This document shows, one piece after another, positions 108 to 47,940 of a DNA stretch of 64,000 nt. The stretch comes from an uncultured Candidatus Saccharibacteria bacterium (lineage in GTDB: Bacteria; Patescibacteriota; Dojkabacteria; B142; JAFGMG01). Under the pieces are notes generated by a model, which was not told where the DNA came from, did no database searches, and saw nothing but the letters and a program-made list of their open reading frames with translations. Numbering within the stretch: position 1 is the stretch's first letter; each line of letters opens with the position of its first letter. The DNA lies in assembly GCA_964444125.1 (NCBI GenBank), contig CAYUFB010000001.1, forward strand, positions 26,053 to 90,052, given 5' to 3'. Both the position numbers and the translations under genes were made by a program.

Positions 108-524
108 ATGCCAAAGCCAAAGCAGCAACAAACAACAAAAGAAGTTGCAAAACAAAAAAAGAAAGCGAAGAAGAAACTAGTACAAAAGGTCATAGTAAAA
201 GTAAAAAGTGGGTATAACAATACAATCGTGACGATCACAGATTATGATGGTAGTGTTATTTCTTCAAGTAGTGGTGGAGTAGTTGGATTTAAGGGATCTA
301 GAAAAAGTACAGCTTTCGCTGCTACAAAAGCAGCAGAAGATGCAGTATTTAAGGCTCAAAAGTTTGGGGCGAAAGAAGCAATTGTTGTAGTTTCAGGCAT
401 GGGAATGGGAAGACAGGCTGCCGTCAAAGGTATTAGATCTGCTGGTTTAAAAATTACATCTCTTTCTGATCATACTCCAGTACCTCATGGTGGTACTTGG
501 TCAAGGAAGAGTCCAAAGAAATAA
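108..524 (+). CDS. rpsK: 30S ribosomal protein S11
   Basis: 138 aa with a Lys-rich N-terminus. The SGGVVGFKGSRKST..AA and VSGMGMGRQAAVKGIRSAGLKIT motifs are typical of S11, and the operon context fits. Confidence 0.93.
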   Translation: MPKPKQQQTTKEVAKQKKKAKKKLVQKVIVKVKSGYNNTIVTITDYDGSVISSSSGGVVGFKGSRKSTAFAATKAAEDAVFKAQKFGAKEAIVVVSGMGMGRQAAVKGIRSAGLKITSLSDHTPVPHGGTWSRKSPKK

Positions 525-541
525 TTAATTAATAAGGAAAT

Positions 542-1141
542 ATGAGATATACAGGTCCAAAAAGAAAACTAGAAAGAAGAGAAAATGCTACTTTATTTGG
601 AAGTGAAGCATGGAAAAAAAGGCCTACTTTGCCTGGTCAGCATGGTGTTTCTAGAAAGAGACCATCAAACTATGCTATTCAGTTTAGAGAAAAACAAAAG
701 GTCAAAAGAACATACTTGATGACAGAGAAACAATTTAGAATATTTTTTGATGAAGCAAAAAAGGCTACAGGAAATACAGGTACAAGATTTCTTCAGTTAT
801 TGGAGATGAGACTTGATAACGTTGTTTACAGACTTGGATTAGCAAAGACAAGAGATCAAGCTAGACAATTTGTAAATCATGGACACATAACAGTAAATGG
901 AAAGAAGCTTAGTATTCCTTCTTTTAGAGTCAAGGTTGGAGATGAGGTATCTTTGTCTAAGAAAATGGACAATAAAGATATTTCAAAACAAATTGCTCAA
1001 GAAATCAAAGCAGAAAAAAGAGCTGTTCCTGCATGGCTAGAAAGGCTTAAGTCTGGTGGCAAGGTTACAGCTGAACCTGTTAGGGAAAATATTGATAAAA
1101 GTATCAAAGAACAGTATATAGTTGAATTTTATTCAAGATAA
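542..1141 (+). CDS. rpsD: 30S ribosomal protein S4
   Basis: 199 aa. MRYTGPKRKLERREN and the S4 domain LDNVVYRLGLAKTRDQARQFVNHGHITVNGKK are present. Confidence 0.93.
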   Translation: MRYTGPKRKLERRENATLFGSEAWKKRPTLPGQHGVSRKRPSNYAIQFREKQKVKRTYLMTEKQFRIFFDEAKKATGNTGTRFLQLLEMRLDNVVYRLGLAKTRDQARQFVNHGHITVNGKKLSIPSFRVKVGDEVSLSKKMDNKDISKQIAQEIKAEKRAVPAWLERLKSGGKVTAEPVRENIDKSIKEQYIVEFYSR

Positions 1142-1160
1142 TAATTATTATTTATATCAA

Positions 1161-2099
1161 ATGTTGGAAATTGATAAATTTGGACTTAAAAAGGTAAAAG
1201 ATGAAGGATCATATGGAGAGTTTGAGATTGGACCACTTCCAAAAGGTTTCGGGCATACAGTAGCAAACTCATTAAGAAGAATATTGCTATCATCAATCGC
1301 TGGAGCATCAGTTGTTTCAGTCAAAATCAATGGTGTAGATCATGAGTATACAGCACTTAAAGGTGTCCAAGATGATGTACTGGCAATTTTATTAAGATTG
1401 AAAGAATTAGCATTAGTTGTTCATACTGAAGATGAGGTAGTTCTAAAGGTATCCAAAAAAGGCAAAAAAGGAGAAGTAGTAGACGTTTTAGCTTCAGATA
1501 TAGAAATAAATCCAGATGTTGAAATTATCAACAAAGATCTTGTTATTACATCGCTTAGTGATGAGAAAAGTAGCTTTGATGCAGAGATTCACGTCAGATC
1601 TGGAGTAGGATACGCTTTCCCAGAGGAATCAATTCGAAAAGAAATTGGCAATTTGCCAATTGATGCTGATTATAATCCTGTCACAAGAGTTGAGATTGAT
1701 ATTGTTACAGCTCGTGTCGGACAAAGAACTGATTACGAACAGATCATACTAAAAGTTCACACAAATATGACCAAAACTCCTTCTGAAGCATTATTAGAGG
1801 CAGTTGAGGTGTATGATAGGATTGCAAACAGACTAGTGAATTTGGCTGGAGGCAATGCTGCAGCATTAGAAGAAGAGGTCAAAGATGAAGAAAGCAAACA
1901 AGAAGAAAGAATACTTGTCAGTGAGGTTAATATGTCAACAAGGCTTACAAATTCATTGATGAATTCAGGTATTTCAACATTAAATGAATTAAACGGAAAA
2001 AGCAAAGAAGATGTTGCAGGGTTTAGGGGTATGGGCAAAAAATCATATGAAGAGTTATTAGAAATTTTAGCTGATTTTGGATTTTCATTAACAGATTAA
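1161..2099 (+). CDS. rpoA: DNA-directed RNA polymerase subunit alpha
   Basis: The GFGHTVANSLRRILLSS motif is present, with NTD and CTD. The ORF track starts at TTG 1122, overlapping rpsD. ATG 1161 (MLEIDKF...) gives the usual spacing to the GFGHT motif. Confidence 0.9.
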   Translation: MLEIDKFGLKKVKDEGSYGEFEIGPLPKGFGHTVANSLRRILLSSIAGASVVSVKINGVDHEYTALKGVQDDVLAILLRLKELALVVHTEDEVVLKVSKKGKKGEVVDVLASDIEINPDVEIINKDLVITSLSDEKSSFDAEIHVRSGVGYAFPEESIRKEIGNLPIDADYNPVTRVEIDIVTARVGQRTDYEQIILKVHTNMTKTPSEALLEAVEVYDRIANRLVNLAGGNAAALEEEVKDEESKQEERILVSEVNMSTRLTNSLMNSGISTLNELNGKSKEDVAGFRGMGKKSYEELLEILADFGFSLTD

Positions 2100-2103
2100 A
2101 TAA

Positions 2104-2499
2104 ATGAGACATAATTATAAAGTCAAAAAATTAGGCAGGCAGAAAGATCATAGAGATATGCTGGTTATAAACCAATTCAAGACTTTGGTTCAGTATGGCA
2201 AATTAGAAACAACTGAACAAAAGGCAAAAGTTGTAGCAGGTTTTGCAGATAAGATTCTTTCAAGATTGGCCAAATTAGATAATGAGAGAGCATTGCAGTT
2301 ATTAGAATCCAAATTAAAGAATAAAAAATTTACTAAGTATTTAGTAGAGGAAATCAAACCTGTCCTAGATAGAGAGTTTGGATTCGTTCGCAAATACAAA
2401 CTAGAGACTAGAAAAGGTGATAATGCTAGTATGATGTTACTTGAATTAATCAAGAAAGAACAAAAATCAAAAAAATCTAATAAAAAGAAAGAGAAATAA
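2104..2499 (+). CDS. rplQ: 50S ribosomal protein L17
   Basis: 131 aa. MRHNYKVKKLGRQKDHRDMLVINQ... is typical of L17, with a Lys-rich C-terminal tail. Confidence 0.9.
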   Translation: MRHNYKVKKLGRQKDHRDMLVINQFKTLVQYGKLETTEQKAKVVAGFADKILSRLAKLDNERALQLLESKLKNKKFTKYLVEEIKPVLDREFGFVRKYKLETRKGDNASMMLLELIKKEQKSKKSNKKKEK

Positions 2500-2501
2500 T
2501 T

Positions 2502-2936
2502 ATGATGAAAACCAGAGTAATTAAACAAAAAGAAGTAAATCAAAATTGGTATTTGTTTGATGCAAAAAATGTAAGACTTGGAAAGCTTGCTGTAGAGGTA
2601 TCAAAAACTCTTATGGGTAAAGACAAAGTCAATTCTGCAGATAATCTTGATGATGGTGACTATGTTGTTGTCATTAATGTCAAAGAATTATCTTTTCATC
2701 CTAAAAAATTAAACAACAAAAAATACTATTCCCACTCAGGATACATGGGTTCTCTAAAAACTGAAACTTTAAAAGATTTGTTTGAAAGAAAACCTGATGA
2801 AGTATTAAGAAAAGCTGTCAAGGGTATGTTACCAAAAAACAAAATTCAAGCGAAGATACTAAATAGACTATATATTTATGAGACTTCTGAGCATAAACAT
2901 GAGGCACAGAAGCCTATACAAATTAAGATCAAGTAA
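2502..2936 (+). CDS. rplM: 50S ribosomal protein L13
   Basis: 144 aa. NWYLFDAKNVRLGKLAVEVSKTLMGK is the L13 signature. Confidence 0.9.
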   Translation: MMKTRVIKQKEVNQNWYLFDAKNVRLGKLAVEVSKTLMGKDKVNSADNLDDGDYVVVINVKELSFHPKKLNNKKYYSHSGYMGSLKTETLKDLFERKPDEVLRKAVKGMLPKNKIQAKILNRLYIYETSEHKHEAQKPIQIKIK

Positions 2937-2941
2937 TAAAT

Positions 2942-3331
2942 ATGGAAAAATACATATATACAAAAGGAAGAAGAAAAACATCAGTTGCAACATTAAGATT
3001 GTATGAGGGCAATGGAGTCACAATGATTAATGACAAAAAGTTTGAAGATGTCTACAGAGATCCAGTAGATAGAGCATTGATTCTTGAGCCATTGAAATTA
3101 ATTGGTTCTCTAGATAAATACTACTTCACTTCAAAAACTAAAGGTGGTGGTGTCAAATCTCAAGCAGGAGCTATTAGACATGCATTATCACGTGCTTTGG
3201 TCAAATCAAGTAGTGATTTTAAATCCACACTTAAGAAAGCAGGAATGTTGGTTCGAGACGATAGAATGGTTGAAAGAAAAAAGACTGGCCTAAAGAAGGC
3301 AAGAAAATCCCCACAATTCTCAAAGAGATAA
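2942..3331 (+). CDS. rpsI: 30S ribosomal protein S9
   Basis: 129 aa. GGGVKSQAGAIRHALSRAL plus the C-terminal RKKTGLKKARKSPQFSKR. Confidence 0.92.
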   Translation: MEKYIYTKGRRKTSVATLRLYEGNGVTMINDKKFEDVYRDPVDRALILEPLKLIGSLDKYYFTSKTKGGGVKSQAGAIRHALSRALVKSSSDFKSTLKKAGMLVRDDRMVERKKTGLKKARKSPQFSKR

Positions 3332-3396
3332 ATTTACAAATACATTGCGCAGTTTCATTTTCTCTCTTATAATAGTAAGAATTATAATTACTGCTC

Positions 3397-4068
3397 GTGT
3401 TCAAGAAATTGTTTTCAACAATTATTCTCATTTTAGTTTTAGTCGTTTTGGCGCTTTGGTCCCCATGGCAGAAATTAGATATTTCCGTATGGGAGATGTT
3501 GGGTTTAAAACAACAGGACAAACTCTCAGGTTTGCAGGTTTATTCTATGAATGGTGAGATAGATATAGAAATTGATGGAGAACCTGTTGGAAGTGTAAAT
3601 GTTGAAGGGTCTCCACTTGATATTTACGAAATTGAACCTGGGGATAGGTTGATAACACTAATCAATAAATCAGAAAATAGTTACAAGTACAACAGGATTA
3701 TTAGATTCGTACCAGGAATTAATACTGTTATCGCTTACGAAATAGGTCCAAATGAGAGATTTTCGAGTGGTTATCTAATTACCGCAACACCTTCTATTGC
3801 TACAAATGAAAGCTTTTTAAATATTGCAGGATATCCATCAAAATCAAAAGTCTATCTTAATGGAGAGATGATTGGCGAGGCACCTATATCTAGATACTCG
3901 TTGAAATTAGATTCTTCATTGGTGATCAAGATTGAGAATGAAAATTATGAAGAACTGCAGTTTAATTTATTACCCGAAGACGATGAAGCCAGGAGCAATC
4001 TGAAAGGATATGACTTAAATATTGAATTTAGGCTCTTTGAAATGCCATTTGAAGTAATAACACTTTAA
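3397..4068 (+). CDS. membrane-anchored PEGA-domain protein
   Basis: 223 aa with an N-terminal TM helix. Two PEGA-like beta repeats are present (IEIDGEPVG... and VYLNGEMIGEAPISRYSL). Its stop overlaps the start of the next gene (TAATG). Confidence 0.6.
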   Translation: MFKKLFSTIILILVLVVLALWSPWQKLDISVWEMLGLKQQDKLSGLQVYSMNGEIDIEIDGEPVGSVNVEGSPLDIYEIEPGDRLITLINKSENSYKYNRIIRFVPGINTVIAYEIGPNERFSSGYLITATPSIATNESFLNIAGYPSKSKVYLNGEMIGEAPISRYSLKLDSSLVIKIENENYEELQFNLLPEDDEARSNLKGYDLNIEFRLFEMPFEVITL

Positions 4069-7000
4069 TGTCAGAAAAAAACAAATTAAAATCAAGTATA
4101 AAATATCCAACTTCTATTATAGTAAGAGGGGATGATTTCTTGGGGGTAGAGATAGCCAAAAGCCTTATTGAACAAGGAGGATACGTAATTGTGGTTGACC
4201 ATGATATTGATAAGACGATAGAGAGATACAAAGAGATAGAAGATCAGAAATTATTAAGTATAATTAACTTTGAATCAATTGATTATTTAGATGACGACTT
4301 AAGGAGATTAGATTATGTTTTTTTCTTGAATCATGAATATGATAATTCTAATTTCAAAATTTCCAGTCAAGAATTTCTTCAAGTATCAAACTATTTAGAT
4401 TTAATGCTAAATCTATCTAGCAAATTTGATGCCAAATTTGTTTTGACCTCTTCAATTCGAGCAAATCAGATAATTCTTGAGCACGGAGAATTGGATCTCA
4501 ATTTTGGAAAATCATCTACATCTGCACAGATGGTCTATACGCAGATGGAGATTCAAAGGTATGCAGAAACATTATGTATGGAATCGGTAGAGAAACTCGG
4601 AATCGATGCGCGTATCACTAGACTTGGGATAGTTGTTGGCAAAGGGATGGATTTTGATCTTAATCGCAGTTTCGATCGCTTGATTTTTCAAGCGGTCAAA
4701 GCGAAAAATTTAGAACTGACAGCTGATGGATTAGAAACAAATTTATATGTCCATGTGCTTGATTGTGCATATGGTTTGATCAAGGCTATGTTCACAAAAG
4801 GTACGCAGGGCAAAATTTATTCGATTTCAAATCAAGAAGAAATAAGTGATTTGAGTATTGCATATAAATTACAAGAGATAACAGGGCTCAATAGAGATAT
4901 TAGGTTTATTGATAGCAGTAATGATCTTCCCCCGATAAGATTTTATAAACCTGTTACAAATTTGTCAGCAATTGGGTGGACTCCCAGGATTTCATTTACT
5001 AGAGCTTTAAATCAAAGCTTGGACTATGCAAGATCACTTGAGGAAGATGGTACACAAATTGATGAAATAGTTTCGCCAGAGGAAGTTGTAGAAGATTTGC
5101 TCTCAGATGATCAACCAAAAGGAGCATTAGCTAGATTGATAGCTGAGCGAAAAAGGCAGGAAAAGGCAAGATCGGGTAGTATTTTGCTTGCAGCACAAAG
5201 AGTTCAGACCAAAAAGAAAGAAAATAGAAATTTGACCAGATACGAGAAATTTCAAAGATACTTACAAGCAAAATATGATAATCTGGCAAATAACCTACAG
5301 TTTTTAAAGAAAGTTACTGTTGCAGAATCGTTCTTTTATGCGATTACCTTTCTTATATTTGTATTAATTTACTTTGCCTTCATATCCCCAGGATTTGTGA
5401 TGATCAAAGAAACTATTAGACTTAATTATTATAATAGTCAGATAGCAAATAATATAGATCAAGCTAATATTGATGAACTGGATAATTCAATTAAAGGCTT
5501 TGATTCATCGTTAGGAGGATTTATCCAAAATTATAAAAAGTTTGAAGTAATTTATAGCTTATTGGGCAAAGAGCATGAATATCGAAGCAATATCAATTCT
5601 TTAAATACATATAAGCTCTATAGTGACAGCCTTTCTTCCAGCTTAGATTATATTGTCAGTTTTGATGAATACTGGAATCAAAATGAATTTGGTTTGGTAC
5701 TTAAACCCAACTCGGAATCAAAATTAATATTGTCACAATATAGTACAAATCAGGCACTAATTGAGAATATTAATACGAGCTCAGTTGAAGCAACTCAAAG
5801 CTCAAAGAAGCTTGAGCTTGCAAAAAAAGCAATAGATGATGTTGCAAATATTTCTGTACTTGGCTACGACATAGATGAGAATATGACCAATTTGGTTGCT
5901 GGTGAAGACTATATCACTGATTTGATGTCATTTATAAATGGCTATAGTCAAATGATGATGAAAAACGAGAAGCATACTTATATACTAGTTATCCAGGATA
6001 ATTCGAGATATACACCATCTGGAGGTTATCCTGCGAGTATCGGGTTCTTCTCTGCCCAAAGTGGACAAATTACTGATATTCTATTTACACCAGTTACAGA
6101 AAATATGCGATTGTCTTCTTTGACAAAATCAGAATTAGATGAGATACAAACTAACTCAGGAGAGATTGTTTCAACTACCCAGGTTGAAATAGATGATTTA
6201 TTTCTTCTTAAGGATAGAAACGTAATACGTGAGCATTTAATTGATTATATGCAAGATCAATATGGAATAAATGCAAGAACAGTTATTTATATAAATCTTG
6301 AAGCTGTTGCATCATTAGCAAATTACAAGGGTGGGGTAGAGATAAATAGCGTTATGGTCAATGAAGCAACGATACTCAATGCTTTAGAATTGTTGCAAAA
6401 AGATACTGGCAAAGTTGAAGACAGAAATAATGTGATTACCGAATTAGCAGCGTCGATTTTTGTTGAGTATACGACAAATAAATCATTGTTAACTGGATTA
6501 CTATCTACATTCAAAGAATACACAAGAACAAGAGGTGTGTTTATTTCATCACAAAACTATGAATTAATGAATAGCCTTGCAATGATTTCAAATAATCCTA
6601 ATGAGAAAAATTGGGCGTTTTTTGCACTTGGTATTGATCCTAACGCAGTAAAGGTCAAGGTATTTCCATCAATGGATTTAAAAGTTGAAGACTATATAGA
6701 AAGTGATTTTGTAATAAATAGAAAGATTACCATTAATCCAGGAAGCAACGAACATTTAGAGAGAGTTATTACATGCGTCCCCTCAAATGCATTTGATTTC
6801 TCTTTAGACAATAGATTGGCCTTAGGGCAGGCTTTTAGTGATAGTCAAATTTGTGTAGCAGGTGATTTTTCAAGATCAGAAAAAGTAAGCTTCAGTTACA
6901 AATTTCGTCCACAAATTGAAAATTTAGGTACAAATGAGTATAATGTAAATCTAGAGTTGCTAGTTGCCCCAGGAAGCAAAGTCAAATATGATTGGGATAT

Positions 7001-7121
7001 AAGTAAGTCTCCAGATATAAAGTTTAAAGATATTGGGGACCTTTCCTTGGCTGGGCAAGTTATTGTGTCTTCTGGCAACTTAGAGAATAGTTTAAATATA
7101 GATTTTATAATCGAGAAATGA
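4068..7121 (+). CDS. large bitopic protein: degenerate NAD-dependent epimerase/SDR-like cytoplasmic domain + single TM + ~570-aa extracytoplasmic domain
   Basis: 1017 aa. The N-terminal ~330 aa has a Rossmann-like fold in which a degenerate RGDDFLG replaces GxxGxxG (IIVRGDDFLGVEIAKSLIEQGGYVIVVDHD). One TM lies at about aa 425-450 (AITFLIFVLIYFAFISPGFVMI). The large C-terminal domain has no motif I can name. It is translationally coupled on both sides (ATGA overlap with greA). Confidence 0.6.
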   Translation: MSEKNKLKSSIKYPTSIIVRGDDFLGVEIAKSLIEQGGYVIVVDHDIDKTIERYKEIEDQKLLSIINFESIDYLDDDLRRLDYVFFLNHEYDNSNFKISSQEFLQVSNYLDLMLNLSSKFDAKFVLTSSIRANQIILEHGELDLNFGKSSTSAQMVYTQMEIQRYAETLCMESVEKLGIDARITRLGIVVGKGMDFDLNRSFDRLIFQAVKAKNLELTADGLETNLYVHVLDCAYGLIKAMFTKGTQGKIYSISNQEEISDLSIAYKLQEITGLNRDIRFIDSSNDLPPIRFYKPVTNLSAIGWTPRISFTRALNQSLDYARSLEEDGTQIDEIVSPEEVVEDLLSDDQPKGALARLIAERKRQEKARSGSILLAAQRVQTKKKENRNLTRYEKFQRYLQAKYDNLANNLQFLKKVTVAESFFYAITFLIFVLIYFAFISPGFVMIKETIRLNYYNSQIANNIDQANIDELDNSIKGFDSSLGGFIQNYKKFEVIYSLLGKEHEYRSNINSLNTYKLYSDSLSSSLDYIVSFDEYWNQNEFGLVLKPNSESKLILSQYSTNQALIENINTSSVEATQSSKKLELAKKAIDDVANISVLGYDIDENMTNLVAGEDYITDLMSFINGYSQMMMKNEKHTYILVIQDNSRYTPSGGYPASIGFFSAQSGQITDILFTPVTENMRLSSLTKSELDEIQTNSGEIVSTTQVEIDDLFLLKDRNVIREHLIDYMQDQYGINARTVIYINLEAVASLANYKGGVEINSVMVNEATILNALELLQKDTGKVEDRNNVITELAASIFVEYTTNKSLLTGLLSTFKEYTRTRGVFISSQNYELMNSLAMISNNPNEKNWAFFALGIDPNAVKVKVFPSMDLKVEDYIESDFVINRKITINPGSNEHLERVITCVPSNAFDFSLDNRLALGQAFSDSQICVAGDFSRSEKVSFSYKFRPQIENLGTNEYNVNLELLVAPGSKVKYDWDISKSPDIKFKDIGDLSLAGQVIVSSGNLENSLNIDFIIEK

Positions 7122-7585
7122 AAGACCAAGTCTTACTGACCAAAGAAGGTTTAGAAGAATTAAAAAATGAATTACAAAGAAGAATTGAAATTGACCGAAT
7201 CAAAATTGCTGAAGAATTAAGTGCAGCAAGTGCTCAAGGAGATCTTTCAGAAAATGCAACATATAAAACTGCAATGGAAGATAAGGAATTCAATGAGAAT
7301 AGGATCGCTGAATTACAAAAAATTATCGCTGAAGCAGTCGTTATTGAGGGAAATAAAAACGATGATACTGCTGGTTTAGGAGAAAGGATTGTAGTTAAGA
7401 GATTATCTGATAACAAAATTAGAGAGTATATTCTTGTCGGAGAAAATGAGGCTGATCCACTTAGCTACAAAATTTCAATCAAGTCTCCAATTGGTAATGC
7501 ATTGTTAAATAAAGATGTGGGTGAAATAGTTAAGGTCGAAATGCCAAATGGCGTAGAAGAATTTGAAATAATTGAGATAAAATAA
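7118..7585 (+). CDS. greA: transcription elongation factor GreA
   Basis: 155 aa with an N-terminal coiled coil (LTKEGLEELKNELQ...SENATYKTAMED) and a C-terminal FKBP-like domain. Confidence 0.85.
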   Translation: MKDQVLLTKEGLEELKNELQRRIEIDRIKIAEELSAASAQGDLSENATYKTAMEDKEFNENRIAELQKIIAEAVVIEGNKNDDTAGLGERIVVKRLSDNKIREYILVGENEADPLSYKISIKSPIGNALLNKDVGEIVKVEMPNGVEEFEIIEIK

Positions 7586-7602
7586 TTCGCTTAAAAAGCT
7601 GA

Positions 7603-7659
7603 CAGGGCCAGTTATATTTGCTATATTAATTAAAGTAAATATTAACTGACCCTTTTTTT
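7603..7659 (+). terminator. putative intrinsic terminator after greA
   Basis: An imperfect stem (cagggccagtta / taactgaccct) with a large loop is followed by a T7 run at 7654-7660. Confidence 0.35.
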
Positions 7660-8497
7660 GGAAAAGCACGCCATCCCGCAAAACATCATGGATGTTGAAT
7701 TTAAATTGTTCGGAAGTCTGACGATCAGACAATTCATGAGCTTGGTGGGGGCCGTCATTATTGCTGGTTTGATATATATTATTGCAACCCCGCTTGGCGT
7801 CCCCGGTATTGTATTCTGGCCAATTGTAGGCTTTATTTTGGCAATAGGCTTTGCAATGGCCTTTATGACAATCAATGGGCAGCCCTTCGCTAGATGGTTT
7901 AGAAATTTTGTATTTGCAATTTTTTCTTCACAGAAATATGTATGGCAAAAATCTCCTCAACCGCCTCAAGCATTGACGCAAAATGTCCCAAAGATGAGCC
8001 CTAAATCGGATAAACAGATTTCAAAAGAATTAGGGATTATGCCTCTTGTAGAAGTTATGTCTGAGAAAAACGTAGAACTAGACGAAGATGAAAAAAAAGA
8101 CTTGTCCAGGATAGATCGATATTTTCAAGCAGAATTTGATAAGTATGTTCCTTCTAAACAAACTGTTGAAAGCAAAAGGCAGGGAATAGCACAAGTTGAT
8201 ATAGAAAATGCCAATATAGCCGGAAATCAAAATAGGATGTATTATGGAGATAATGTAGTAGATATAGGCAAAGGAAAGAGAGCGGTTTATTCAAATATGC
8301 AAAATAGAGCTTCCAGACCTGTTATGAAGGACGATTCTGAAGTGATGATGGAAAAAAAAATCAAAGAGATACTTCAAAGACAGCGTGAACTCGATCCTTA
8401 TATAAAAACAATGGAAATAGAAGAAAGGGAAAAAGAACTCAAACAAGAAATGAGAAGACTTTATCAAGAAATTCAGGAGTTAAACTCTAAAAAATAA
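7658..8497 (+). CDS. PrgI/VirB3-like type IV secretion membrane protein
   Basis: 279 aa. The N-terminus (DVEFKLFGSLTIRQF, followed by two TM helices) resembles the PrgI family of Gram-positive T4SS. The C-terminus is a charged coiled coil. It lies immediately upstream of VirB4. Confidence 0.5.
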   Translation: MEKHAIPQNIMDVEFKLFGSLTIRQFMSLVGAVIIAGLIYIIATPLGVPGIVFWPIVGFILAIGFAMAFMTINGQPFARWFRNFVFAIFSSQKYVWQKSPQPPQALTQNVPKMSPKSDKQISKELGIMPLVEVMSEKNVELDEDEKKDLSRIDRYFQAEFDKYVPSKQTVESKRQGIAQVDIENANIAGNQNRMYYGDNVVDIGKGKRAVYSNMQNRASRPVMKDDSEVMMEKKIKEILQRQRELDPYIKTMEIEEREKELKQEMRRLYQEIQELNSKK

Positions 8498-9174
8498 TGG
8501 CAAAAAAAATACCTGCAACACAAGAACATTTGAGTATAGAAGAGATCGTTGATGATATGGTCATACTTCGCAATGGGGTCGTGGTGTTGATTCTTGAGAC
8601 AAGTGCTCTAAATTTCGATTTACTCTCAGAAGAAGAGCAGGATGTAAGGATTTTAGCATTCGCAAATTTATTAAATGGTGTAGATTACAGATTTGAGATA
8701 AGCATCAGAACGGTTAGAACAGATGTAAGTGAATATATAAAAAAACTTGAAGACTATAAATCCAAACAAATATCAAGGCCTCTTATTAGGCAGATAGAAA
8801 TATACATGCAATTTATACGAAATTTAACGACCAAAAATGAGATTCTAGACAAAAGATTTTTTGTTTCTATTCCCTATAGAGGTGGCCTTGTAGCAGATCC
8901 AAGTTTTTATAAAAAACTACTTGGGGCTAAGCCCAAGATTTCTAATGTCCCAAGGGTTGTAGAAAAAGCAAAAATTGATTTGTATCCAAAAAGAGACAAC
9001 ATTATCAGATTATTTAAAAAAATGGGTATATCGGCAAGACAGTTGACCAATAACGAATTATTGATGTTGTTTTATGAAATTTATGATCCTGATAAGATAG
9101 GGTACCAAAAGATCGGCCTAAATATTAGAGATTATACAACAGGTATTATTCAACCATTAAGGGAAGAAAAATAA
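8497..9174 (+). CDS. T4SS-associated protein, possibly the detached N-terminal domain of VirB4/TrsE
   Basis: 225 aa. LILETSALNFDLLSEEEQDVRILAFANLL resembles the N-terminal region of Gram-positive VirB4 homologs. It ends 2 nt before the VirB4 ATPase ORF. Confidence 0.45.
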   Translation: MAKKIPATQEHLSIEEIVDDMVILRNGVVVLILETSALNFDLLSEEEQDVRILAFANLLNGVDYRFEISIRTVRTDVSEYIKKLEDYKSKQISRPLIRQIEIYMQFIRNLTTKNEILDKRFFVSIPYRGGLVADPSFYKKLLGAKPKISNVPRVVEKAKIDLYPKRDNIIRLFKKMGISARQLTNNELLMLFYEIYDPDKIGYQKIGLNIRDYTTGIIQPLREEK

Positions 9175-9176
9175 AT

Positions 9177-11123
9177 ATGGGATTATTTAGCAAAAAGAAA
9201 AAACAGCAAGCTGGCAATATTGTACAAAAACAACAAAGTCAAGCAAGTAGTATGCAGGCTGAAGACAAGGCGGTCAAGGAGTTTGCTTCAGGGTTAATTA
9301 GTCCCAAAGACATCATTGCTCCTTCTGCAATCGAGGTTGATTTCAATCATCTTCTAGTTGGTTCTAAATATTTTAGAACTTATTTTGTAACTGGTTATCC
9401 AAGATTTGTGGGAGCGAACTGGTTATCTCCACTTATCAATTTTGATCATCCAATAGATATATCTACCTATTATTATCCCGTAGATACTGGTCTTGTCATG
9501 GAAAGGATAAAAAGGAAGATTGGTGAGTTTGAAGCGACAATAAATCTGGCATTAGATGAAGGCAAAATCCCAGATCCAAATGTCAAAGTCGCATTAGCAG
9601 ATGCAAGGGAACTGCAGGATCAATTAGCAAGCGGTACTGAGAAATATTTTCATTTTGCCTTGTATATTACTATTAGAGCCGAATCACTTAAACAGCTTGA
9701 AAAAATTTCTAGAAAAATTGAATCAACTTTGGCCTCTATTGGCGTTATAATCAAAATGGCAACTTTGCAACAGGAAGAAGGCTTTAGAACTACTATGCCA
9801 ATAGCTCATGATGAAATCTATATTACTAGGAATATGGATACGACTTCACTCGCTACGACTTTTCCTTTTGTAAGCTCTGAGCTTACTATGGATGATGGAA
9901 TTCTATATGGCCTAAACAAACACAATAGTAGTTTGGTTATTTTTGATAGATTTCAACTCGCAAATGCAAATATGGTCGTATTTGCAACGTCTGGAGCGGG
10001 CAAAAGTTATTTTGTGAAACTTGAGGCGATGCGAAGTCTTATGTTTGGTACAGAAATTATTGTGATTGATCCTGAAAAAGAATACGAAAAACTCTGCAAA
10101 ACAATTGGTGGCGAATATATATCGTTTTCTCAAGATGGAGATCAAAAACTTAATCCTTTTGAACTTTCTGGGGTATATTTGAAAGACGAGGATGAATTAA
10201 GATTTAAGATTCTGGCACTAAATGGTCTACTAAAAATTATGCTTGGGACTAAGCTCTCACCAGAACAAAGTGCAATATTAGATAGAGCTATTATTCTATG
10301 TTATAAAGAAAAAGGAATTACACCAGATCCTTCTACACAAAGAAATCAACCTCCATTACTTTCTGATCTGTACAAAATCTTGCAAGCTATGGCAGAACCT
10401 GATGCACATCTATTAGCAACTAGGCTAGAGAAGTATGTAAAAGGTAGTGCTGCTGGAATTTTTGATAGGCCATCAAATATTCAAATCAAAAATACGTTTA
10501 CAGTATTTTCTATTCGAGATCTTTCAGATGATTTGAGACCTATAGCTATGTATATGATGCTTGATTATATTTGGACGAGAATCAAAAGAGACCGCAAGAA
10601 AAGAATATTGGTTATTGATGAAGCTTGGTGGATGATGCAACATGAAGACGCAGCCCGTTTCATTCATTCTATTGCTAAAAGATCAAGGAAATATGCACTA
10701 GGGCTTACAACTATCACACAAGACGTTGAAGATTTCTTAAACACTGATTATGGCAAAGCAGTTGTGACAAACTCTGCTTTGCAGGTTTTGCTGAAACAAA
10801 GTCCAGTTGCAATTGATAAAATTCAAAATATTTTTTATCTAACTTCGGGAGAAAAAAATTACTTACTTTCAGCAGGAATTGGGGAAGGTCTGTTTTTTGC
10901 AGGATCAAATCATGTAGCTATTCAAGTTATTGCAAGTGAAAATGAACATAATCTAATTACAACAAATCCGCTTGAATTGATTGAACGGCAGAAAAAAGAG
11001 GAGGAAGCTTTGAAAATCCAAGAGGAAGAGAAGTTAAAGGCGCAAAGAGAAGGGGCTGAACAATCAGTAGATGAGACTCAAGCTGGTCAAAATACTGTAG
11101 ATGTCACAGATGGGGTGGTTTAA
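9177..11123 (+). CDS. virB4: VirB4/TrsE-family type IV secretion ATPase
   Basis: 648 aa with Walker A (VFATSGAGKSYFVK) and the Walker B/DEAW motif RILVIDEAWWMM, followed by TTITQDVEDF. These are characteristic of the VirB4/TraC/TrsE/PrgJ family. Confidence 0.85.
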   Translation: MGLFSKKKKQQAGNIVQKQQSQASSMQAEDKAVKEFASGLISPKDIIAPSAIEVDFNHLLVGSKYFRTYFVTGYPRFVGANWLSPLINFDHPIDISTYYYPVDTGLVMERIKRKIGEFEATINLALDEGKIPDPNVKVALADARELQDQLASGTEKYFHFALYITIRAESLKQLEKISRKIESTLASIGVIIKMATLQQEEGFRTTMPIAHDEIYITRNMDTTSLATTFPFVSSELTMDDGILYGLNKHNSSLVIFDRFQLANANMVVFATSGAGKSYFVKLEAMRSLMFGTEIIVIDPEKEYEKLCKTIGGEYISFSQDGDQKLNPFELSGVYLKDEDELRFKILALNGLLKIMLGTKLSPEQSAILDRAIILCYKEKGITPDPSTQRNQPPLLSDLYKILQAMAEPDAHLLATRLEKYVKGSAAGIFDRPSNIQIKNTFTVFSIRDLSDDLRPIAMYMMLDYIWTRIKRDRKKRILVIDEAWWMMQHEDAARFIHSIAKRSRKYALGLTTITQDVEDFLNTDYGKAVVTNSALQVLLKQSPVAIDKIQNIFYLTSGEKNYLLSAGIGEGLFFAGSNHVAIQVIASENEHNLITTNPLELIERQKKEEEALKIQEEEKLKAQREGAEQSVDETQAGQNTVDVTDGVV

Positions 11124-11146
11124 ATCAAATATTAGTAATAATACTG

Positions 11147-11746
11147 ATGCTTAATTTCTTAAAAACAGAATATACAATCAACGTGTTTGGCTGGATCATG
11201 CTTGTTGGAGCTTTTGTGTTTTTGGTTCTTGCTTTTACAAGTTTCAATCATTGGAGGCATAAAATGTTAGAACGAAGGATGGAATCTGCCCAACAGAAGA
11301 CTGGATTTCTGGGCAAACCACTTATGCAATTTATAGTAATTATGCTTATGGTGGGATCAATTGCTACAGGTGTTTATTTGCAATATCAAAAAGATAGTAG
11401 CCCAGCGATTTCTGAGGCAACGAGGAAATACCAATTGTCGCTTGATTATAAAAGTAATTTTGTTTCTAGTACACAAAGAATGTTGGAAATTGAAGTAACC
11501 CCGTCTGTTGCAGATCAAAAATGGGGGCAAGATGGAGATCAGTTTGATATTTTTATCAATATAATACCAAATGACGAGAAGACAAGAAACTTACAAAAAC
11601 AAGTTGATTTTTTTGAATTAAATAAATCAGCTTCGAGTTTGAGCAAGGTTACGGCAACTATTCAACCCGGTAATTACAAAATTAAAGTAGTTATCAAACA
11701 TAATAACACTACATTTGGTAATGATTATGAGGTTCAAATTCCATAA
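11147..11746 (+). CDS. small membrane protein (2 TM + beta-rich domain), possible T4SS accessory protein
   Basis: 199 aa with two hydrophobic helices near the N-terminus. It is the last gene of the cluster. No family recognised. Confidence 0.5.
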   Translation: MLNFLKTEYTINVFGWIMLVGAFVFLVLAFTSFNHWRHKMLERRMESAQQKTGFLGKPLMQFIVIMLMVGSIATGVYLQYQKDSSPAISEATRKYQLSLDYKSNFVSSTQRMLEIEVTPSVADQKWGQDGDQFDIFINIIPNDEKTRNLQKQVDFFELNKSASSLSKVTATIQPGNYKIKVVIKHNNTTFGNDYEVQIP

Positions 11747-11760
11747 AATATGCTATAATG

Positions 11761-12118
11761 TCATACCAATCTAGACAATCGCGGTAAGAGAGACCTAGGT
11801 CTTTATTGCTGAGGAAAGTCCGGACATCGAGATCTTGTCTTACAAGATCAAAATAGTACCTTAGAGCGTCAAATAATTGACGTATATAAGGCAGGGAGTG
11901 ATCTCTGGAATAGGGCCACAGAAAAATACCGCCTTGGATTTATTTCGAGGTAAGGTTGAAAAGGTGAGGTAAGAGCTCACCGGCTTGATAAGCAATTATC
12001 AAGTGCTAGGTAACCTCTACTAGATGCAACCAAGCAAAATTTTGGGCAATAGATAAATGATTGTCGCTTAATTTCTTAAGAAATTTAAGCACAGAATCCG
12101 GCTTATTGATTGGTTATC
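11761..12118 (+). ncRNA. rnpB: RNase P RNA (bacterial type A)
   Basis: The conserved P4 strands are present: GAGGAAAGTCCGGAC near 11811 and ACAGAATCCGGCTTA near 12089. The GGTAAGGTTGAAAAGGTG...GTAAGAGC module is present. P1 pairs ataccaatc (11764) with gattggttat (12104). Confidence 0.8.
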
Positions 12119-12803
12119 TTCTTCTGTCATTTAGTCCATCTATCTTGAGTATGAAATATAGAAGTGAACTAAATGAACTTATTAATCCTGCAAGATAAGT
12201 TAATGATGCTGCGATTAAAACTTTTTTGGCTCCTGTCATTTCTGTCGGATCGAGTAGGTTATTTTTTCGAATTAAATGCAACGCTTTTTTACTTGCATCA
12301 ATCTCAAGCGGCAGGGTCAGTAAACTAAAAAGTGTTGAACCAGAAAAAAGAATTACACCCAGCCAGCCAAGATTAATACTTGAAATAAGTAGTGCAATAA
12401 TAATTAGAAAGTATCCAATATTTGTACCAATATTTACAACAGGAACGATAATACTCCTGGACTTAAATAATAAACTTCCTTGCTTATGTTGTACTGCATG
12501 TCCAACTTCATGGGCTGCAATAGCTATTGAACTGATTGTTGGGGTATTGGCAATTTGATGCGATAAGGTCAGTACACGATTGGTTGGATTATAATTGTCA
12601 CCAAGATGTGTACTTGTGCTTGCAAGTGAAATGGGTAGATTCTGGTCTTGTGCTAGGATTTTGACTGCGTCAAGCCCAGTAAGGTTTTTGGATGTGACAA
12701 TGTTTAAATATTTTGAACTGTAATATTTCACCAATAATGATGCTAGTATTGATAATAGAAGTGCCGGCAGTGCAAATAGTAAGTATCCTGAATCTATATA
12801 CAT
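12114..12803 (-). CDS. membrane zinc metallopeptidase (YugP/Zn_peptidase_2-like)
   Basis: 229 aa with several TM segments and a HEXXH motif (AAHEVGHAVQH). Confidence 0.7.
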   Translation of the reverse strand: MYIDSGYLLFALPALLLSILASLLVKYYSSKYLNIVTSKNLTGLDAVKILAQDQNLPISLASTSTHLGDNYNPTNRVLTLSHQIANTPTISSIAIAAHEVGHAVQHKQGSLLFKSRSIIVPVVNIGTNIGYFLIIIALLISSINLGWLGVILFSGSTLFSLLTLPLEIDASKKALHLIRKNNLLDPTEMTGAKKVLIAASLTYLAGLISSFSSLLYFILKIDGLNDRRR

Positions 12804-13406
12804 TTTGAAAAAATAATGAATAATATTTATCTATGACAACATATTATACTAGAAGATCTGCATTCTCTTCAAATAATTAGAGTATAAGCATATTGAACAA
12901 TATGTTTGGGGAATATTTAACTGTTTTGTTTATGAGTGTGCTGAGATGCAGATGATATACAAATGATTTGGATTTAGAGAACCCTTGTTGGGTAGGTCCT
13001 TATGAGGGGAGATCGTAACATCGTTCAATATTGCATATCCTTTATGTAACACTCGGCTCATTTAGAATCAGAAAATAGATAAATATGTCTAGTTATTTAT
13101 ATTTTCACTATCTTGTAAGCCCCCGTCTTTCAAGAATATCCAGTTTCATGAAGTTTCTATTTTTTCTTTATCATTGTGCCTCTTTTGGGGGCAGTAAATG
13201 TGTTTCTGGATAGCTCTAGTCAAATTGGGATTGATGAATATGGTGCAACTTCTTGTAACGATATTATTTAGAAAGTAAGTGTTTGAGAAAGTTGAACAAG
13301 CGTCTGGAAGTCTCTATGTGTAAGCTTATTGTACATTTAGCTTTGTGTTTTGAGTAATTCGTTTAATTTTCGATAATAATTTGAAGAAATGTTACGAATC
13401 AAGGAT

Positions 13407-16343
13407 TTATCTTCCATGACATTTTTTGAACTTTTTGCCACTTCCACACCAGCAAGGATCATTCCTACCGAGTTTTGTTTTGGCTGATGATACAAAGGTT
13501 TTCTCTTTTTCATTTTTTGATGTAGCTTGTTTCGCATCCATTACATTTGAAATTGATTGAAGCATCTCTCTCGTGCCTTCAAGTATATCTGATATTTCAC
13601 TATCGTTAGTTCTCATTCTGATCGTTGGTTGAGATTGAGTACTAAGTTTCTTTGTTACTTTAAGAATTCTTCTATTTATTTGAGAATTAATACCGTTGAT
13701 AAATATTTCAAATTGGTTGAAGCCTTCATTTTTGTATTCAACAAGCGGATCCCTTTGGGCGTATCCTCTAAGTCCAATTCCCTCCCTTAAATCCTCCATA
13801 GTTTCAAGATGTGAGGTCCATAAATTATCCATTGTCTCAAGGCTTACAATTTTGACAACTTCATAATAGTCTAGCCCTAATTCTTCTTGTTGTATTTTGT
13901 GAACTTCTCTAATGATATTGCTCAAATACTCAATAATGTATTCTTTTGGTTTATCTTTTAGTTCATCATATATGTGTAAAGTTATCTGATTGCTTTTCTG
14001 ATCTTTGCCTTTACGCAAATTTTCGATGGCTTTTGTGATTAAAGTATCCGGTGCAAGATCTAAAAAGTTTTCGATTAGTTTCTTCAGATCTATTTTGTCA
14101 TCTCGATCATCAAAGAAATGATTAGCAACGATTGTCTCTACCTCTTCTATTAATTGATCTTGAATTAGTTGTCTAATATCTTCTTGTGCATTCTGGACGG
14201 TTATATCAGATAGATCCTTTTTGGATAATGCCGGGTAATTAAGAAAATATCCTAATGAATTTTCAGTTTTTTCTAAAATTGATCTTCTCCTGACATAATA
14301 GATTTCTCTTTGTTGATTCATGACGTCATCGTATTCAACAACTCTCTTTCTGGAATCAAAATGCATGTTTTCCATTTTCTTTTGAGCAGTTTCAATTGAA
14401 CGTCCGATAAGTCCTGCTTCAATTGGCATATCATCGGGGATATTTGTCATTTCCATTATCTTTTGGACTATCTGACCTCCTTGAATTCGCATGATGTCAT
14501 CATCAAGGGAGATAAAGAAACGGCTTCGTCCAGGATCTCCTTGTCGACCTGAACGTCCTCTAAGCTGATTGTCTATACGTCTAGATTCATGTCTTTGTGT
14601 ACCTAAAACGTATAGTCCTCCAACTTTTGTTACTCCGTTTTCAAGTGGAATATCGGTACCACGGCCTGCCATGTTTGTAGCAATGGTTACAGCCCCTTTT
14701 CTTCCAGCTTTTGAAACTATCATGGCCTCTTTTTCGTGATGTTTTGCATTCAATACTTCATGTTCGATTCCCATTTTATCAACTAATTTGCTTATATATT
14801 CTGAATCTTCAATTGAGGTGGTACCTACAAGAATTGGTTGCCCAGTCGCGTGAGCTTCTTTGATTTCCTTTGCAACAGCATCAAACTTTGCTTTTCTATT
14901 TTTGTAGACCCTATCATTTTCATCTTTTCGAATAACTGGCTTGTTTGTTGGTATTTCGACAGAATCCAGTTTATATATCCTAAAAAATTCTTCTGCTTCT
15001 GTCATGATTGTTCCAGAACCTCCGGAAATAATTTTGTACAATCTAAAGAAGTTTTGGAAAGTGATTGTTGCTAATGTCTTGGATTCTTTTTTGATCTCTA
15101 CGCCCTCTTTCGCTTCTATTGCTTGGTGCAATCCTTCGGAATATCTTCTGCCTGAAAGGACTCTACCTGTAAACTGATCGACAATGAGTACTTCCCCATC
15201 TCGAACAAGATAATCTATATCTTTTTTAAACAGACTTTGTGCCTTAAGAGCATTTTCAAGATGATGAGCAAGTTGATAGTCTTCCCAGATGTTTTTGACA
15301 TTTAAGAATTTTTCCATCTTTTCAATGCCAATTTCAGTTAATACTGCTGATCTGGCTTTCTCGTCAACTGTATAGTCTTCTTCTATCTTGAGCCTTTTTA
15401 CGATACCTGCAAATTTCTGATACAACTCATTTGATATTTCTGCAGGAGCAGAAATAATCAATGGAGTTCTGGCTTCGTCAATTAAGATAGAATCGGCTTC
15501 GTCAATAATACAAAAATATAACTCGCTTTGTTTGATCGAACCTAAATCCCTGGCCATATTATCTCTCAAATAATCAAATCCAAATTCATTGTTGGTACCA
15601 TAAACAATATCAGATGCGTATGATTCCTTTTTGTCGCATTCAATTAGGTTGTATCCTCGCATATTGGATATCTTAAGTCCGCCATTTGTCTTATAATGTT
15701 CTTGAGCTTCTTTGTAGACATCTTCTCCTTTTAGTTTTTCTACCATTTCGTCTGGTATGAATCTGTAACTTGATTCAGGGGTAATCACGCCAACAGTTAA
15801 TCCAAGTTCATGGGCAATATGTCCGGCATATTCGCCACCAACTCTAGCAAGATAATCATTGACAGTCACTACGTGTGAGCCTCTACCGGCAAGGGCATAA
15901 AGAAAAGCCGGAAGTTGAAAAACCATTGTTTTTCCTTCTCCAGTTTTAAGTTCAGTAAGTTTGTGACCTTGAGAGAGGATAATACCTGCGATGTACTGTA
16001 CATCGAAGTATGATATGCCCACTTTTCTTTTATAGACTTCGTTGATAAGTGGGAAAAATTCTGGGATTAAGTTATAAAGCTCATTTTTTAGATCGTTTTC
16101 TTTTTTTTGATATTTTTGTGATGTTTCAGATTGAGTTTGCAGAGAGGATCTTGCCTCATCGGGTATTGCATCGACAAATTTTTCTAGTGAACGCTTTATA
16201 TCTTGAACTTTTTCGACAATCTGTTTGTCATTTAGTTTAGATGCACTTATCTCTTTTTCTTTTATTAATTTAAGAATAGGCTGTACGTTTTTTATGGCTT
16301 TTTCATTTGAGTCAAAAAAGCTACCGAATAATTTTTTGAACAT
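13407..16343 (-). CDS. secA: preprotein translocase ATPase SecA
   Basis: 978 aa with DEAD-like motor motifs and a C-terminal zinc finger (CWCGSGKKFKKCHG). Confidence 0.93.
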   Translation of the reverse strand: MFKKLFGSFFDSNEKAIKNVQPILKLIKEKEISASKLNDKQIVEKVQDIKRSLEKFVDAIPDEARSSLQTQSETSQKYQKKENDLKNELYNLIPEFFPLINEVYKRKVGISYFDVQYIAGIILSQGHKLTELKTGEGKTMVFQLPAFLYALAGRGSHVVTVNDYLARVGGEYAGHIAHELGLTVGVITPESSYRFIPDEMVEKLKGEDVYKEAQEHYKTNGGLKISNMRGYNLIECDKKESYASDIVYGTNNEFGFDYLRDNMARDLGSIKQSELYFCIIDEADSILIDEARTPLIISAPAEISNELYQKFAGIVKRLKIEEDYTVDEKARSAVLTEIGIEKMEKFLNVKNIWEDYQLAHHLENALKAQSLFKKDIDYLVRDGEVLIVDQFTGRVLSGRRYSEGLHQAIEAKEGVEIKKESKTLATITFQNFFRLYKIISGGSGTIMTEAEEFFRIYKLDSVEIPTNKPVIRKDENDRVYKNRKAKFDAVAKEIKEAHATGQPILVGTTSIEDSEYISKLVDKMGIEHEVLNAKHHEKEAMIVSKAGRKGAVTIATNMAGRGTDIPLENGVTKVGGLYVLGTQRHESRRIDNQLRGRSGRQGDPGRSRFFISLDDDIMRIQGGQIVQKIMEMTNIPDDMPIEAGLIGRSIETAQKKMENMHFDSRKRVVEYDDVMNQQREIYYVRRRSILEKTENSLGYFLNYPALSKKDLSDITVQNAQEDIRQLIQDQLIEEVETIVANHFFDDRDDKIDLKKLIENFLDLAPDTLITKAIENLRKGKDQKSNQITLHIYDELKDKPKEYIIEYLSNIIREVHKIQQEELGLDYYEVVKIVSLETMDNLWTSHLETMEDLREGIGLRGYAQRDPLVEYKNEGFNQFEIFINGINSQINRRILKVTKKLSTQSQPTIRMRTNDSEISDILEGTREMLQSISNVMDAKQATSKNEKEKTFVSSAKTKLGRNDPCWCGSGKKFKKCHGR

Positions 16344-38195: not shown

Positions 38196-38325
38196 ACGTC
38201 GGAAAACTATCTATTGGATTATAACATTATTTGTTATTTATGAGAGCTGGTATTTTTGTTGATATTATCCTTGATTTATCAGATACTTGTATTGTTTGAG
38301 TTGTTTTTATTATTTGAAAGATACT

Positions 38326-47866: not shown

Positions 47867-47940
47867 ACGTTAGTATATCAGTATTTCGTAAATGCTATTT
47901 TTTATTATCTTCAATTATTTAGTTTATCATCCTACCATTA

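Follow-up and report, generated by a model that had tools for sequence, protein, structure and literature searches.

A probable patescibacterial type IV secretion motor between the ribosomal-protein/rpoA operon and rnpB of a Dojkabacteria chromosome

Known systems and the Dojkabacteria locus

Type IV secretion systems (T4SSs) of Patescibacteria have been described in recent years, and we compare with them a locus on a Dojkabacteria (WS6) chromosome, at 7658-11746 of the 64,000-nucleotide (nt) stretch that was analysed (the window). The locus encodes a PrgI-family VirB3-like protein, a TrsD-like protein, a VirB4 ATPase and a two-helix membrane protein named p199. Judged from its sequence, it most probably represents the cytoplasmic-membrane motor of a Patescibacteria-type T4SS. 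Statements on the presence or absence of open reading frames (ORFs) refer to the window.

An unusual T4SS was reported by Wang et al. 2023 (PMC10633639) for the Saccharibacterium Southlakia epibionticum (SEML1_0006-0019). It is related to Gram-positive systems and contains pilins, a coupling protein or a relaxase could not be recognised, and it was found to be essential by transposon sequencing (Tn-seq; PMC10633639). The cluster is essential for epibiotic growth and comEC is dispensable (PMC10633639, PMC12857230). Quiñonero-Coronel et al. 2025 (PMC12102498) analysed 3,035 Patescibacteria genomes, with Dojkabacteria among them, and found VirB4 in 2,417. In their study the patescibacterial VirB4 proteins group in a single clade within MPF_FATA; the partner most often encoded next to virB4 is TrsD, VirB3 is frequent, and some classes have few VirB6 and VirB8 proteins. 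Relaxases were present in 103 of the 3,035 genomes, and of 5,713 homologues of type IV coupling proteins (T4CPs) in 2,918 genomes only 148 are encoded near virB4 (PMC12102498). Genes or arrays of VirB2-like pilins close to virB4 occur often, but not universally (1,135 of 1,948 assemblies). Dojkabacteria were sampled and not discussed in the main text of that paper, which does not mention GreA, PEGA or DUF4012 either. The patescibacterial systems are listed as newcomers to the T4SS superfamily in a 2025 review (PMC12857230), effector delivery and nucleotide uptake are mentioned as possible T4SS roles in a 2024 perspective (PMC11665869), and tubular structures at a parasite-host interface have been reported (bioRxiv 10.64898/2026.06.21.733656).

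The four genes of the locus in the window are:

7658-8497, + strand: PrgI-family VirB3-like protein, 279 amino acids (aa); PF12666, hydropathy
8497-9174, + strand: TrsD-like soluble protein, 225 aa; weak match to NF041427, position before virB4
9177-11123, + strand: VirB4 ATPase of the CD1110/MPF_FATA type, 648 aa; NF045971, 394 bits
11147-11746, + strand: p199, lineage-specific protein with two transmembrane (TM) helices, 199 aa; hydropathy, orthologue alignment, AlphaFold model

The locus shares with the Patescibacteria-clade T4SSs its chromosomal location, a VirB4 descended from MPF_FATA, immediately ahead of which a TrsD-like protein and a PrgI-type VirB3 are encoded, the lack of a relaxase or T4CP gene nearby, its occurrence in a reduced patescibacterial genome and a very wide vertical conservation. 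It differs from the clusters of Saccharibacteria and Microgenomatia in that the window contains no VirB2-like pilin array, no VirB6 and no cell-wall hydrolase. Moreover, it lies between the ribosomal-protein/rpoA operon and rnpB and not beside dnaA/dnaN, the PrgI protein is devoid of a C-terminal beta-sandwich, and a subclade-specific gene, p199, follows virB4. The system was already described between 2023 and 2025, and the locus adds no new kind. A preliminary description of this DNA, made from the sequence alone, had proposed a VirB3/VirB4 module without nearby conjugation partners as in reduced episymbiotic bacteria; this agrees with the pattern reported in PMC12102498 and with the Dojkabacteria/WS6 homologues we found. 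The term "uncharacterised", used there for the accessory genes, does not apply to systems of this class, which are described in PMC10633639, PMC12102498 and PMC12857230.

With the MPF_FATA systems of Gram-positive bacteria (TrsC-TrsD-TrsE of pGO1/pSK41, PrgI-PrgJ of pCF10, and integrative and conjugative elements of the CD1110 type) the locus has the VirB4 family and a PrgI-family VirB3 in common, and with the pGO1 subclass also a separate TrsD-like gene ahead of VirB4. However, the module in the window is not part of a mobile element. The pCF10 operon additionally contains PrgH (VirB6), PrgK (hydrolase), PrgL (VirB8-like), PcfC (T4CP), a relaxase and adhesins, none of which occurs in the window, and likewise no complete MPF_FATA set (relaxase, VirD4/TcpA, VirB6/PrgH, PrgL-like VirB8, hydrolase) was detected there.

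Outside the Patescibacteria, the closest relative within the plasmid collection is located on the megaplasmid NZ_CP062975.1 of Pontibacillus sp. ALD_SL1 (351801-361354), a free-living member of the Bacillota, unlike the host of the locus described here. This plasmid locus shows the same order of TrsD and VirB4, with 36.5% identity for VirB4 and 31% for TrsD (E 8e-20). It lies beside flagellar genes on a plasmid typed as non-mobilizable, with no relaxase within 30 kb. A pilin-like gene, genes for a 779-aa, a 116-aa and a TrsD-like protein, virB4 and a gene for a 1,050-aa M23 peptidase constitute the locus, which resembles the Microgenomatia clusters more than the window. It is possibly a Bacillota counterpart of the relaxase-less patescibacterial system.

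The PrgI-TrsD-VirB4 core

The assignment of the ATPase (9177-11123) is supported by several matches. The NCBIfam model NF045971 ("VirB4-like conjugal transfer ATPase, CD1110 family") scores 394 bits at a cut-off of 325 and is covered from position 179 to 735 of 752; the Pfam families P-loop_TraG (PF19044) and AAA_10 match with 94 and 42 bits. The best relative in the PDB is 4ag5, the C-terminal domain of VirB4 from Thermoanaerobacter pseudethanolicus (1e-47), and residues 37-576 align to residues 219-772 of PrgJ from pCF10 with 27% identity over 540 residues (E 5e-47). The Walker A motif SGAGKS (272-277) and the Walker B motif DEAWW (481-485) are invariant in 17 homologues, so that the VirB4 ATPase with a DEAW motif named in the preliminary description is confirmed. 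Other family models gave 15.8 bits for HerA, 63.7 bits for CedB and 15 bits for the TraD coupling protein. An alternative identity as HerA or FtsK was ruled out by the low scores for HerA and for Pfam DUF87 (34.8 bits) in comparison with that for the CD1110 family; by hidden Markov models (HMMs) the protein groups with VirB4. More than 8,000 database proteins match it at E <1e-20, the closest named ones being from Dojkabacteria/WS6. Identities amount to 83-87% with the nearest relatives and to 52-70% with VirB4 of Microgenomatia and WWE3, whereas the best match in the plasmid collection reaches at most 39%.

Since the ATPase ORF covers the CD1110 model only between positions 179 and 735, the N-terminal, VirB3-binding domain of VirB4 is not part of the same polypeptide. 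In the VirB4_plasma model with its 894 positions, the 225-aa ORF upstream (8497-9174) covers 108-279 and the ATPase ORF 288-893. Because the two ORFs cover the VirB4 model in a complementary manner, and TrsD-like relatives are found directly upstream of virB4 on Firmicutes plasmids, we regard the 225-aa protein as TrsD-like, a detached counterpart of the VirB4 N-terminal domain with a weak sequence relationship to it. The NCBIfam TrsD/TraD model NF041427 gave 28.6 bits (E 1.1e-6), which is below the curated cut-off of 200, and the precomputed Pfam match of the orthologues to PF26593 (TraC-like) is marked as weak. In tblastn searches, TrsD-annotated genes were found at E 0.1-0.8 only, and unannotated genes adjacent to virB4 at 8e-20. 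No hydrophobic or TM segment was observed in this ORF by hydropathy analysis. The protein appears to be soluble, and of the "small membrane proteins" previously said to be linked to VirB4 only p199, with its two TM helices, is one.

The 279-aa product of 7658-8497 matches Pfam PF12666 (PrgI) with 39.2 bits at a cut-off of 27. Hydropathy analysis located two TM helices at about 26-43 and 50-72, followed by a charged tail resembling a coiled coil. With this two-helix hairpin and the position beside virB4, the earlier designation as a PrgI/VirB3-like membrane protein is well founded. Upstream of the first ATG lies a conserved N-terminal motif, HxIPQNIxDVEFKLFG, and the TTG start of prgI is therefore supported. 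Homologues in other Dojkabacteria and in Microgenomatia carry a C-terminal beta-sandwich of about 80 aa of the CarboxypepD_reg/transthyretin-like type (e.g. L001 8039-9274, L010 5286-6119 and L024 3753-4736), and among PDB structures a profile of these homologues matches domains of the SdrD B-repeat and NOMO types. The protein in the window and its nearest relatives (270-279 aa) appear to have lost this domain.

For comparison, 84 loci were used, namely 83 fetched loci and the window, originating from Dojkabacteria, Microgenomatia and WWE3. A TrsD-like gene directly precedes virB4 in 77 of the 84, and PrgI is encoded upstream of virB4 in 74, in 68 of them at the second position. Most exceptions from the order of the triad are contigs truncated upstream, and no fewer than three patescibacterial classes keep the order PrgI-TrsD-VirB4. 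The whole block between rpsK and p199 is syntenic in two complete Dojkabacteria genomes (about 1.2 Mb each) and on four other contigs whose VirB4 shows 68-87% identity. Proteins encoded in 108-16343 of the window were compared with four relatives (L085, L084, L001 and L003, in this order):

VirB4: 87, 83, 69 and 73% identity
TrsD: 79, 81, 53 and 53%
RpsD: 78, 75, 59 and 60%
RpoA: 79, 68, 49 and 46%
SecA: 70, 66 and 55%; not found in L003

Accordingly, VirB4 ranks highest in conservation within the block, reaching at least the level of the ribosomal proteins S4 and S11 and exceeding RpoA and SecA. Purifying selection on VirB4 is as strong as on ribosomal proteins, and this conservation points to an indispensable role.

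On the basis of VirB4 biology, we propose that a VirB4 hexamer is anchored to the membrane by VirB3 and TrsD. By hydrolysing ATP, the hexamer would drive the assembly of, or the transport through, a channel or pilus that spans the envelope at the site of host contact. Such a machine would be non-conjugative and would serve an essential function depending on the host, most likely in exporting or assembling surface proteins and effectors, with uptake of macromolecules as the main alternative. With its fast-evolving, predicted Ig (immunoglobulin)-like outer domain, p199 might be a host-facing accessory.

Several points weigh against a working envelope-spanning machine of this type. A VirB6 channel component, a pilin or a cell-wall hydrolase was not found in the window, and HMMs built from neighbours of virB4 in Microgenomatia (28 pilins, the M23 giants, and the 337-aa and 86-aa families) had zero matches there. 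The membership of VirB4 in the published monophyletic patescibacterial clade we infer from levels of identity. The homology of the TrsD-like ORF to the N-terminal domain of VirB4 depends on weak scores (E around 1e-6, below cut-offs); its profile had zero matches in the PDB, and an hhalign comparison with the N-terminus of PrgJ from pCF10 was collinear and not significant. Finally, the proposed function is derived from VirB4/VirB3 biology and from the genetics of Saccharibacteria, and the role of the patescibacterial T4SS has been called "completely unknown" even in Saccharibacteria (PMC11665869).

The opposite direction of transport we consider rather improbable. In this case VirB4 would pull host polynucleotides, DNA or RNA, into a cell unable to make nucleotides, in analogy to the archaeal Ced (CedA/CedB) and the Helicobacter pylori ComB systems. 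In both systems a VirB4-family ATPase without a relaxase powers non-conjugative import, so that a functional precedent is given; the VirB4 of the window shows a weak match to CedB, and the window without a relaxase and a T4CP fits a non-conjugative role. Since comEC is dispensable, the T4SS has also been proposed as a route of nucleotide acquisition (PMC11665869), and VirB4 has been tied to RNA parasitism in this phylum (bioRxiv 10.64898/2026.06.21.733656). However, the score for CedB (NF041017) stays far below the cut-off of 700 and below the score for the CD1110 family, the CedD score is 27.6 with a cut-off of 600, and neither a CedA-like polytopic partner, in the operon or elsewhere in the window, nor a ComB-like partner was found.

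Neighbouring genes and their distribution

The first approximately 12 kb of the window form a single block of genes oriented on the + strand. In addition to the four genes listed above, this block comprises:

108-3331, + strand: rpsK, rpsD, rpoA, rplQ, rplM and rpsI, ribosomal-protein/rpoA genes
3397-4068, + strand: membrane-anchored PEGA-domain protein, 223 aa; PF08308, 33 bits; TM helix at residues 5-23
4068-7121, + strand: bitopic SDR-DUF4012 protein, 1017 aa; TM helix at residues 428-446 (SDR, short-chain dehydrogenase/reductase)
7118-7585, + strand: greA, transcription elongation factor GreA; NF001263, 147.6 bits (cut-off 145), both Pfam GreA/GreB domains
7599-7627, + strand: candidate promoter, CTGACA-17 nt-TG-TATATT; 10/12 in the consensus scan, extended -10
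11763-12120, + strand: rnpB, RNase P RNA of bacterial class A; Rfam RF00010, 158 bits (gathering score 100)

Coordinates and strands of the ORFs as given in the preliminary description were all confirmed, as were the identity of greA and the gene overlaps, which are real: TAATG at 4068 between the PEGA gene and the gene of the giant protein, ATGA at 7118 between the latter and greA, and TAATG at 8497 between prgI and the TrsD-like gene. The sole gap within the block comprises 72 nt between greA and prgI. It contains one promoter-like site (7599-7627), possibly a promoter of the T4SS module itself. The counts of promoter-like sites and terminators obtained by consensus scans in this region are at or below the level of shuffled sequences, so that the evidence for a promoter is weak.

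The 1017-aa protein had been described as bitopic, in agreement with the single TM helix located by hydropathy analysis. Its cytoplasmic part (about 15-330) adopts the extended-SDR fold of nucleotide-sugar epimerases, and the outer region consists of a helical stalk, an alpha/beta domain of DUF4012 and a C-terminal beta domain. In the SDR domain, an invariant Tyr157-x-x-x-Glu161 is found where YxxxK is expected, and G-D-D-F-L-G takes the place of the glycine-rich motif for nicotinamide adenine dinucleotide (NAD). These residues suggest a nucleotide-sugar-binding domain that is non-catalytic or atypical and is joined to DUF4012 across the membrane. The closest homologues are named Dojkabacteria/WS6. 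DUF4012 is enriched in CPR (candidate phyla radiation) bacteria and in Gram-positive bacteria, and is present in an exopolysaccharide locus of Bifidobacterium (PMC5412050, PMC6744442).

The order PEGA, giant protein, greA and prgI is confined to the Dojkabacteria subclade of the window, and the same holds for the position of the PEGA gene beside that of the giant protein. The "coupling" of the module to the giant protein and greA which had been proposed is hence a property of one subclade, with other neighbours beside the triad elsewhere. In five WWE3-like loci a homologue of the giant protein is encoded immediately before prgI, without greA. In Microgenomatia, the homologue lies 7-11 genes downstream, past dnaA, dnaN, rnpA, yidD, yidC, khpB and an RNase H gene, in some cases close to a gene of the Wzy_C (O-antigen-ligase-like) kind. 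In many other Dojkabacteria, no homologue occurs within 10 kb of the triad. Altogether, a homologue lies at most ten genes away from virB4 in 33 of the 84 loci, in three arrangements (L047 4114-7185, L050 4531-7626, L057 4357-7479 and about 21 Microgenomatia loci, e.g. L034, L044 and L053). A conserved neighbourhood close to the origin, inherited from a common ancestor, can account for this proximity.

A single apparatus formed by PEGA, the giant protein and the triad, in which the giant would replace VirB6, VirB8 or VirB1 as an envelope-spanning or wall-remodelling component, is unlikely in our opinion. The genes in 3397-11746 overlap and share one orientation, their order is conserved in the subclade, and the five WWE3-like loci as well as the 33 loci mentioned point in the same direction; moreover, the slot before prgI is occupied in Microgenomatia by a different bitopic giant (about 1,300 aa) that contains an M23 peptidase domain. 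However, the many Dojkabacteria triads without a giant, the housekeeping genes between giant and triad in Microgenomatia together with the occasional vicinity of Wzy_C, which look like an origin-proximal neighbourhood, and the housekeeping gene greA between the two in the window speak against it. So do the occurrence of DUF4012 in exopolysaccharide loci of bacteria without a T4SS (PMC5412050, PMC6744442), the nucleotide-sugar epimerase fold of the cytoplasmic domain and the much faster evolution of the giant protein, which is 48, 40 and 30% identical to its counterparts in L085, L084 and L001 when VirB4 is 87, 83 and 69% identical. Decidedly doubtful is also a more specific version, namely that the T4SS of the subclade has been pared to VirB3, TrsD, VirB4 and p199, with PEGA and the pseudo-epimerase/DUF4012 giant as its envelope-spanning parts. 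If true, the two proteins would replace the set of pilin, VirB6 and M23 hydrolase of Microgenomatia and Saccharibacteria, and a new architecture of a VirB4-driven cell-contact apparatus would be given. We rather consider PEGA, the giant protein and GreA to be encoded by co-oriented, possibly co-transcribed neighbours that most likely act in the biogenesis of envelope glycopolymers and in transcription and do not belong to the secretion machine.

The bitopic M23 giant in the Microgenomatia slot is accompanied by a conserved 337-aa protein without known family, and the pair is preceded by arrays of PF18895 pilins.

Downstream of virB4, p199 possesses two TM helices with an invariant GFLGK motif ahead of the second one. 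The alignment of orthologues comprises seven sequences with 18-38% identity. For the outer C-terminal domain of about 105 aa, a single-sequence AlphaFold model predicts a beta-sandwich of seven strands with a predicted local distance difference test score (pLDDT) of 67.9; the homologue search yielded two proteins and thus no deep alignment for the model. In a Foldseek comparison of the model with the PDB, only generic sandwich domains of the Ig/fibronectin type III (FN3) kind were found. A VirB8/PrgL-like nature of p199, which had been considered a candidate, is unsupported by the beta-sandwich model, and neither a VirB8/NTF2-like match by Foldseek nor a VirB8-, VirB10- or PrgL-like fold was obtained for 11147-11746. 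The gene is restricted to the subclade of the window, always directly follows virB4 and encodes the least conserved protein of the block (27, 29, 23 and 26% identity in L085, L084, L001 and L003). Taken together, the modelled domain is plausibly exposed at the surface, with p199 a lineage-specific accessory at the host-facing end.

In the other Dojkabacteria lineage, the slot of p199 contains a conserved ORF of about 86 aa that shares 13-55 nt with the 3' end of virB4 (L008 12078-12335, L010 9196-9450 and nine more Dojkabacteria loci). Its product is soluble, carries the conserved C-terminal motif SALRLxNPFKG and has no matches to protein families.

The patescibacterial T4SS is among the few systems shown to be essential for an epibiotic lifestyle. 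Dojkabacteria indicate that the VirB3-TrsD-VirB4 core need not have pilins, VirB6 or a hydrolase in its vicinity, the variable parts being surface-exposed accessories, i.e. p199, the C-terminal domain of PrgI and the giant envelope proteins encoded upstream. These contrasts could help to separate the invariant motor from lineage-specific parts of the host interface and to choose targets for structural studies.

Chromosomal setting and further observations in the window

Pfam scans of all ORFs of at least 90 aa in the 64 kb revealed no T4CP/VirD4, relaxase, VirB6, VirB8 or pilin, and no integrase or transposase; matches to PF18895 or PF04956 and an array of small ORFs were not found in the window either. 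The absence of a coupling protein, VirB6 and a relaxase reported before is thereby confirmed, and no complete conjugative element lies beside the module. Two pilin candidates (38287-38601 and 48301-48663) were rejected, as no pilin family matched even at E values up to 10. Likewise, the 269-aa protein with nine helices encoded at 17862-18671 was rejected as VirB6; the orthologue contains DUF5656 and is found coupled to a protein with a CAP domain. In the window, this gene overlaps by 4 nt with 16480-17865 (+), which encodes a secreted protein of the CAP (cysteine-rich secretory protein) family with Ig-like domains, and the pair of CAP and DUF5656-type nine-helix genes is kept in inverted orientation in L084 and L085.

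A conventional conjugative system, of which T4CP, relaxase, VirB6 and other components are encoded elsewhere in the genome, is very improbable. T4CP homologues are common and usually located far from virB4 (PMC12102498), and our inspection covered 64 kb of the genome. However, relaxases are not only confined to the 103 genomes mentioned above but also rarely found near virB4, and in S. epibionticum the T4CP homologue is non-essential whereas other T4SS genes are essential (PMC12102498). In addition, the module is fixed in a housekeeping block and conserved at the level of ribosomal proteins, unlike mobile cargo.

The GC content of the window is uniform (0.32-0.37) and the cumulative GC skew climbs monotonically. 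The region upstream of the window corresponds to the remaining part of the ribosomal superoperon, from L16 via SecY to S13. Because of its location in a housekeeping block, the conserved synteny, the uniform GC content and the lack of genes of mobile elements, the module is a vertically inherited, strongly constrained chromosomal unit and neither a mobile element nor a remnant. That it could be the decaying, functionless residue of an integrated conjugative element, as the small number of T4SS genes and the seemingly "truncated" VirB4 in two ORFs might suggest, is hardly credible, since the arrangement in two ORFs is ancient (77 of the 84 loci), the catalytic motifs are invariant in the most conserved protein of the block, and neither an integrase, flanking repeats, a tRNA nor a compositional shift was observed.

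The 367-nt stretch behind the module, previously regarded as "empty", contains the RNase P RNA gene. According to the Rfam match, rnpB starts 17 nt past the last ORF of the module on the same strand, and co-transcription with the module or 3' processing from its transcript is possible. It is followed by a Zn-peptidase gene and secA on the opposite strand. The slot of rnpB is kept in most relatives (L085 12531-12894, L001 12557-12918 and L005 12437-12767, all +) and inverted in L084 (12562-12964, -). In Microgenomatia, rnpA, the gene of the RNase P protein, lies a few genes away from virB4.

Further observations concern other parts of the window. A DEAD-box helicase appears to be encoded by two ORFs on the + strand, 25 nt apart (38750-39613, DEAD, 287 aa; 39639-40004, Helicase_C, 121 aa); a mutation (frameshift or stop), an error of sequencing or a genuinely split gene could be the cause. 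About 600 nt beside tRNA-Gln (47701-48300) contain no ORF of at least 60 aa and no Rfam family at the gathering threshold. At 61348-62151 and 62126-62917 (+), two overlapping paralogous genes in tandem encode HTH_3 (XRE-type) regulators of about 265 aa each.

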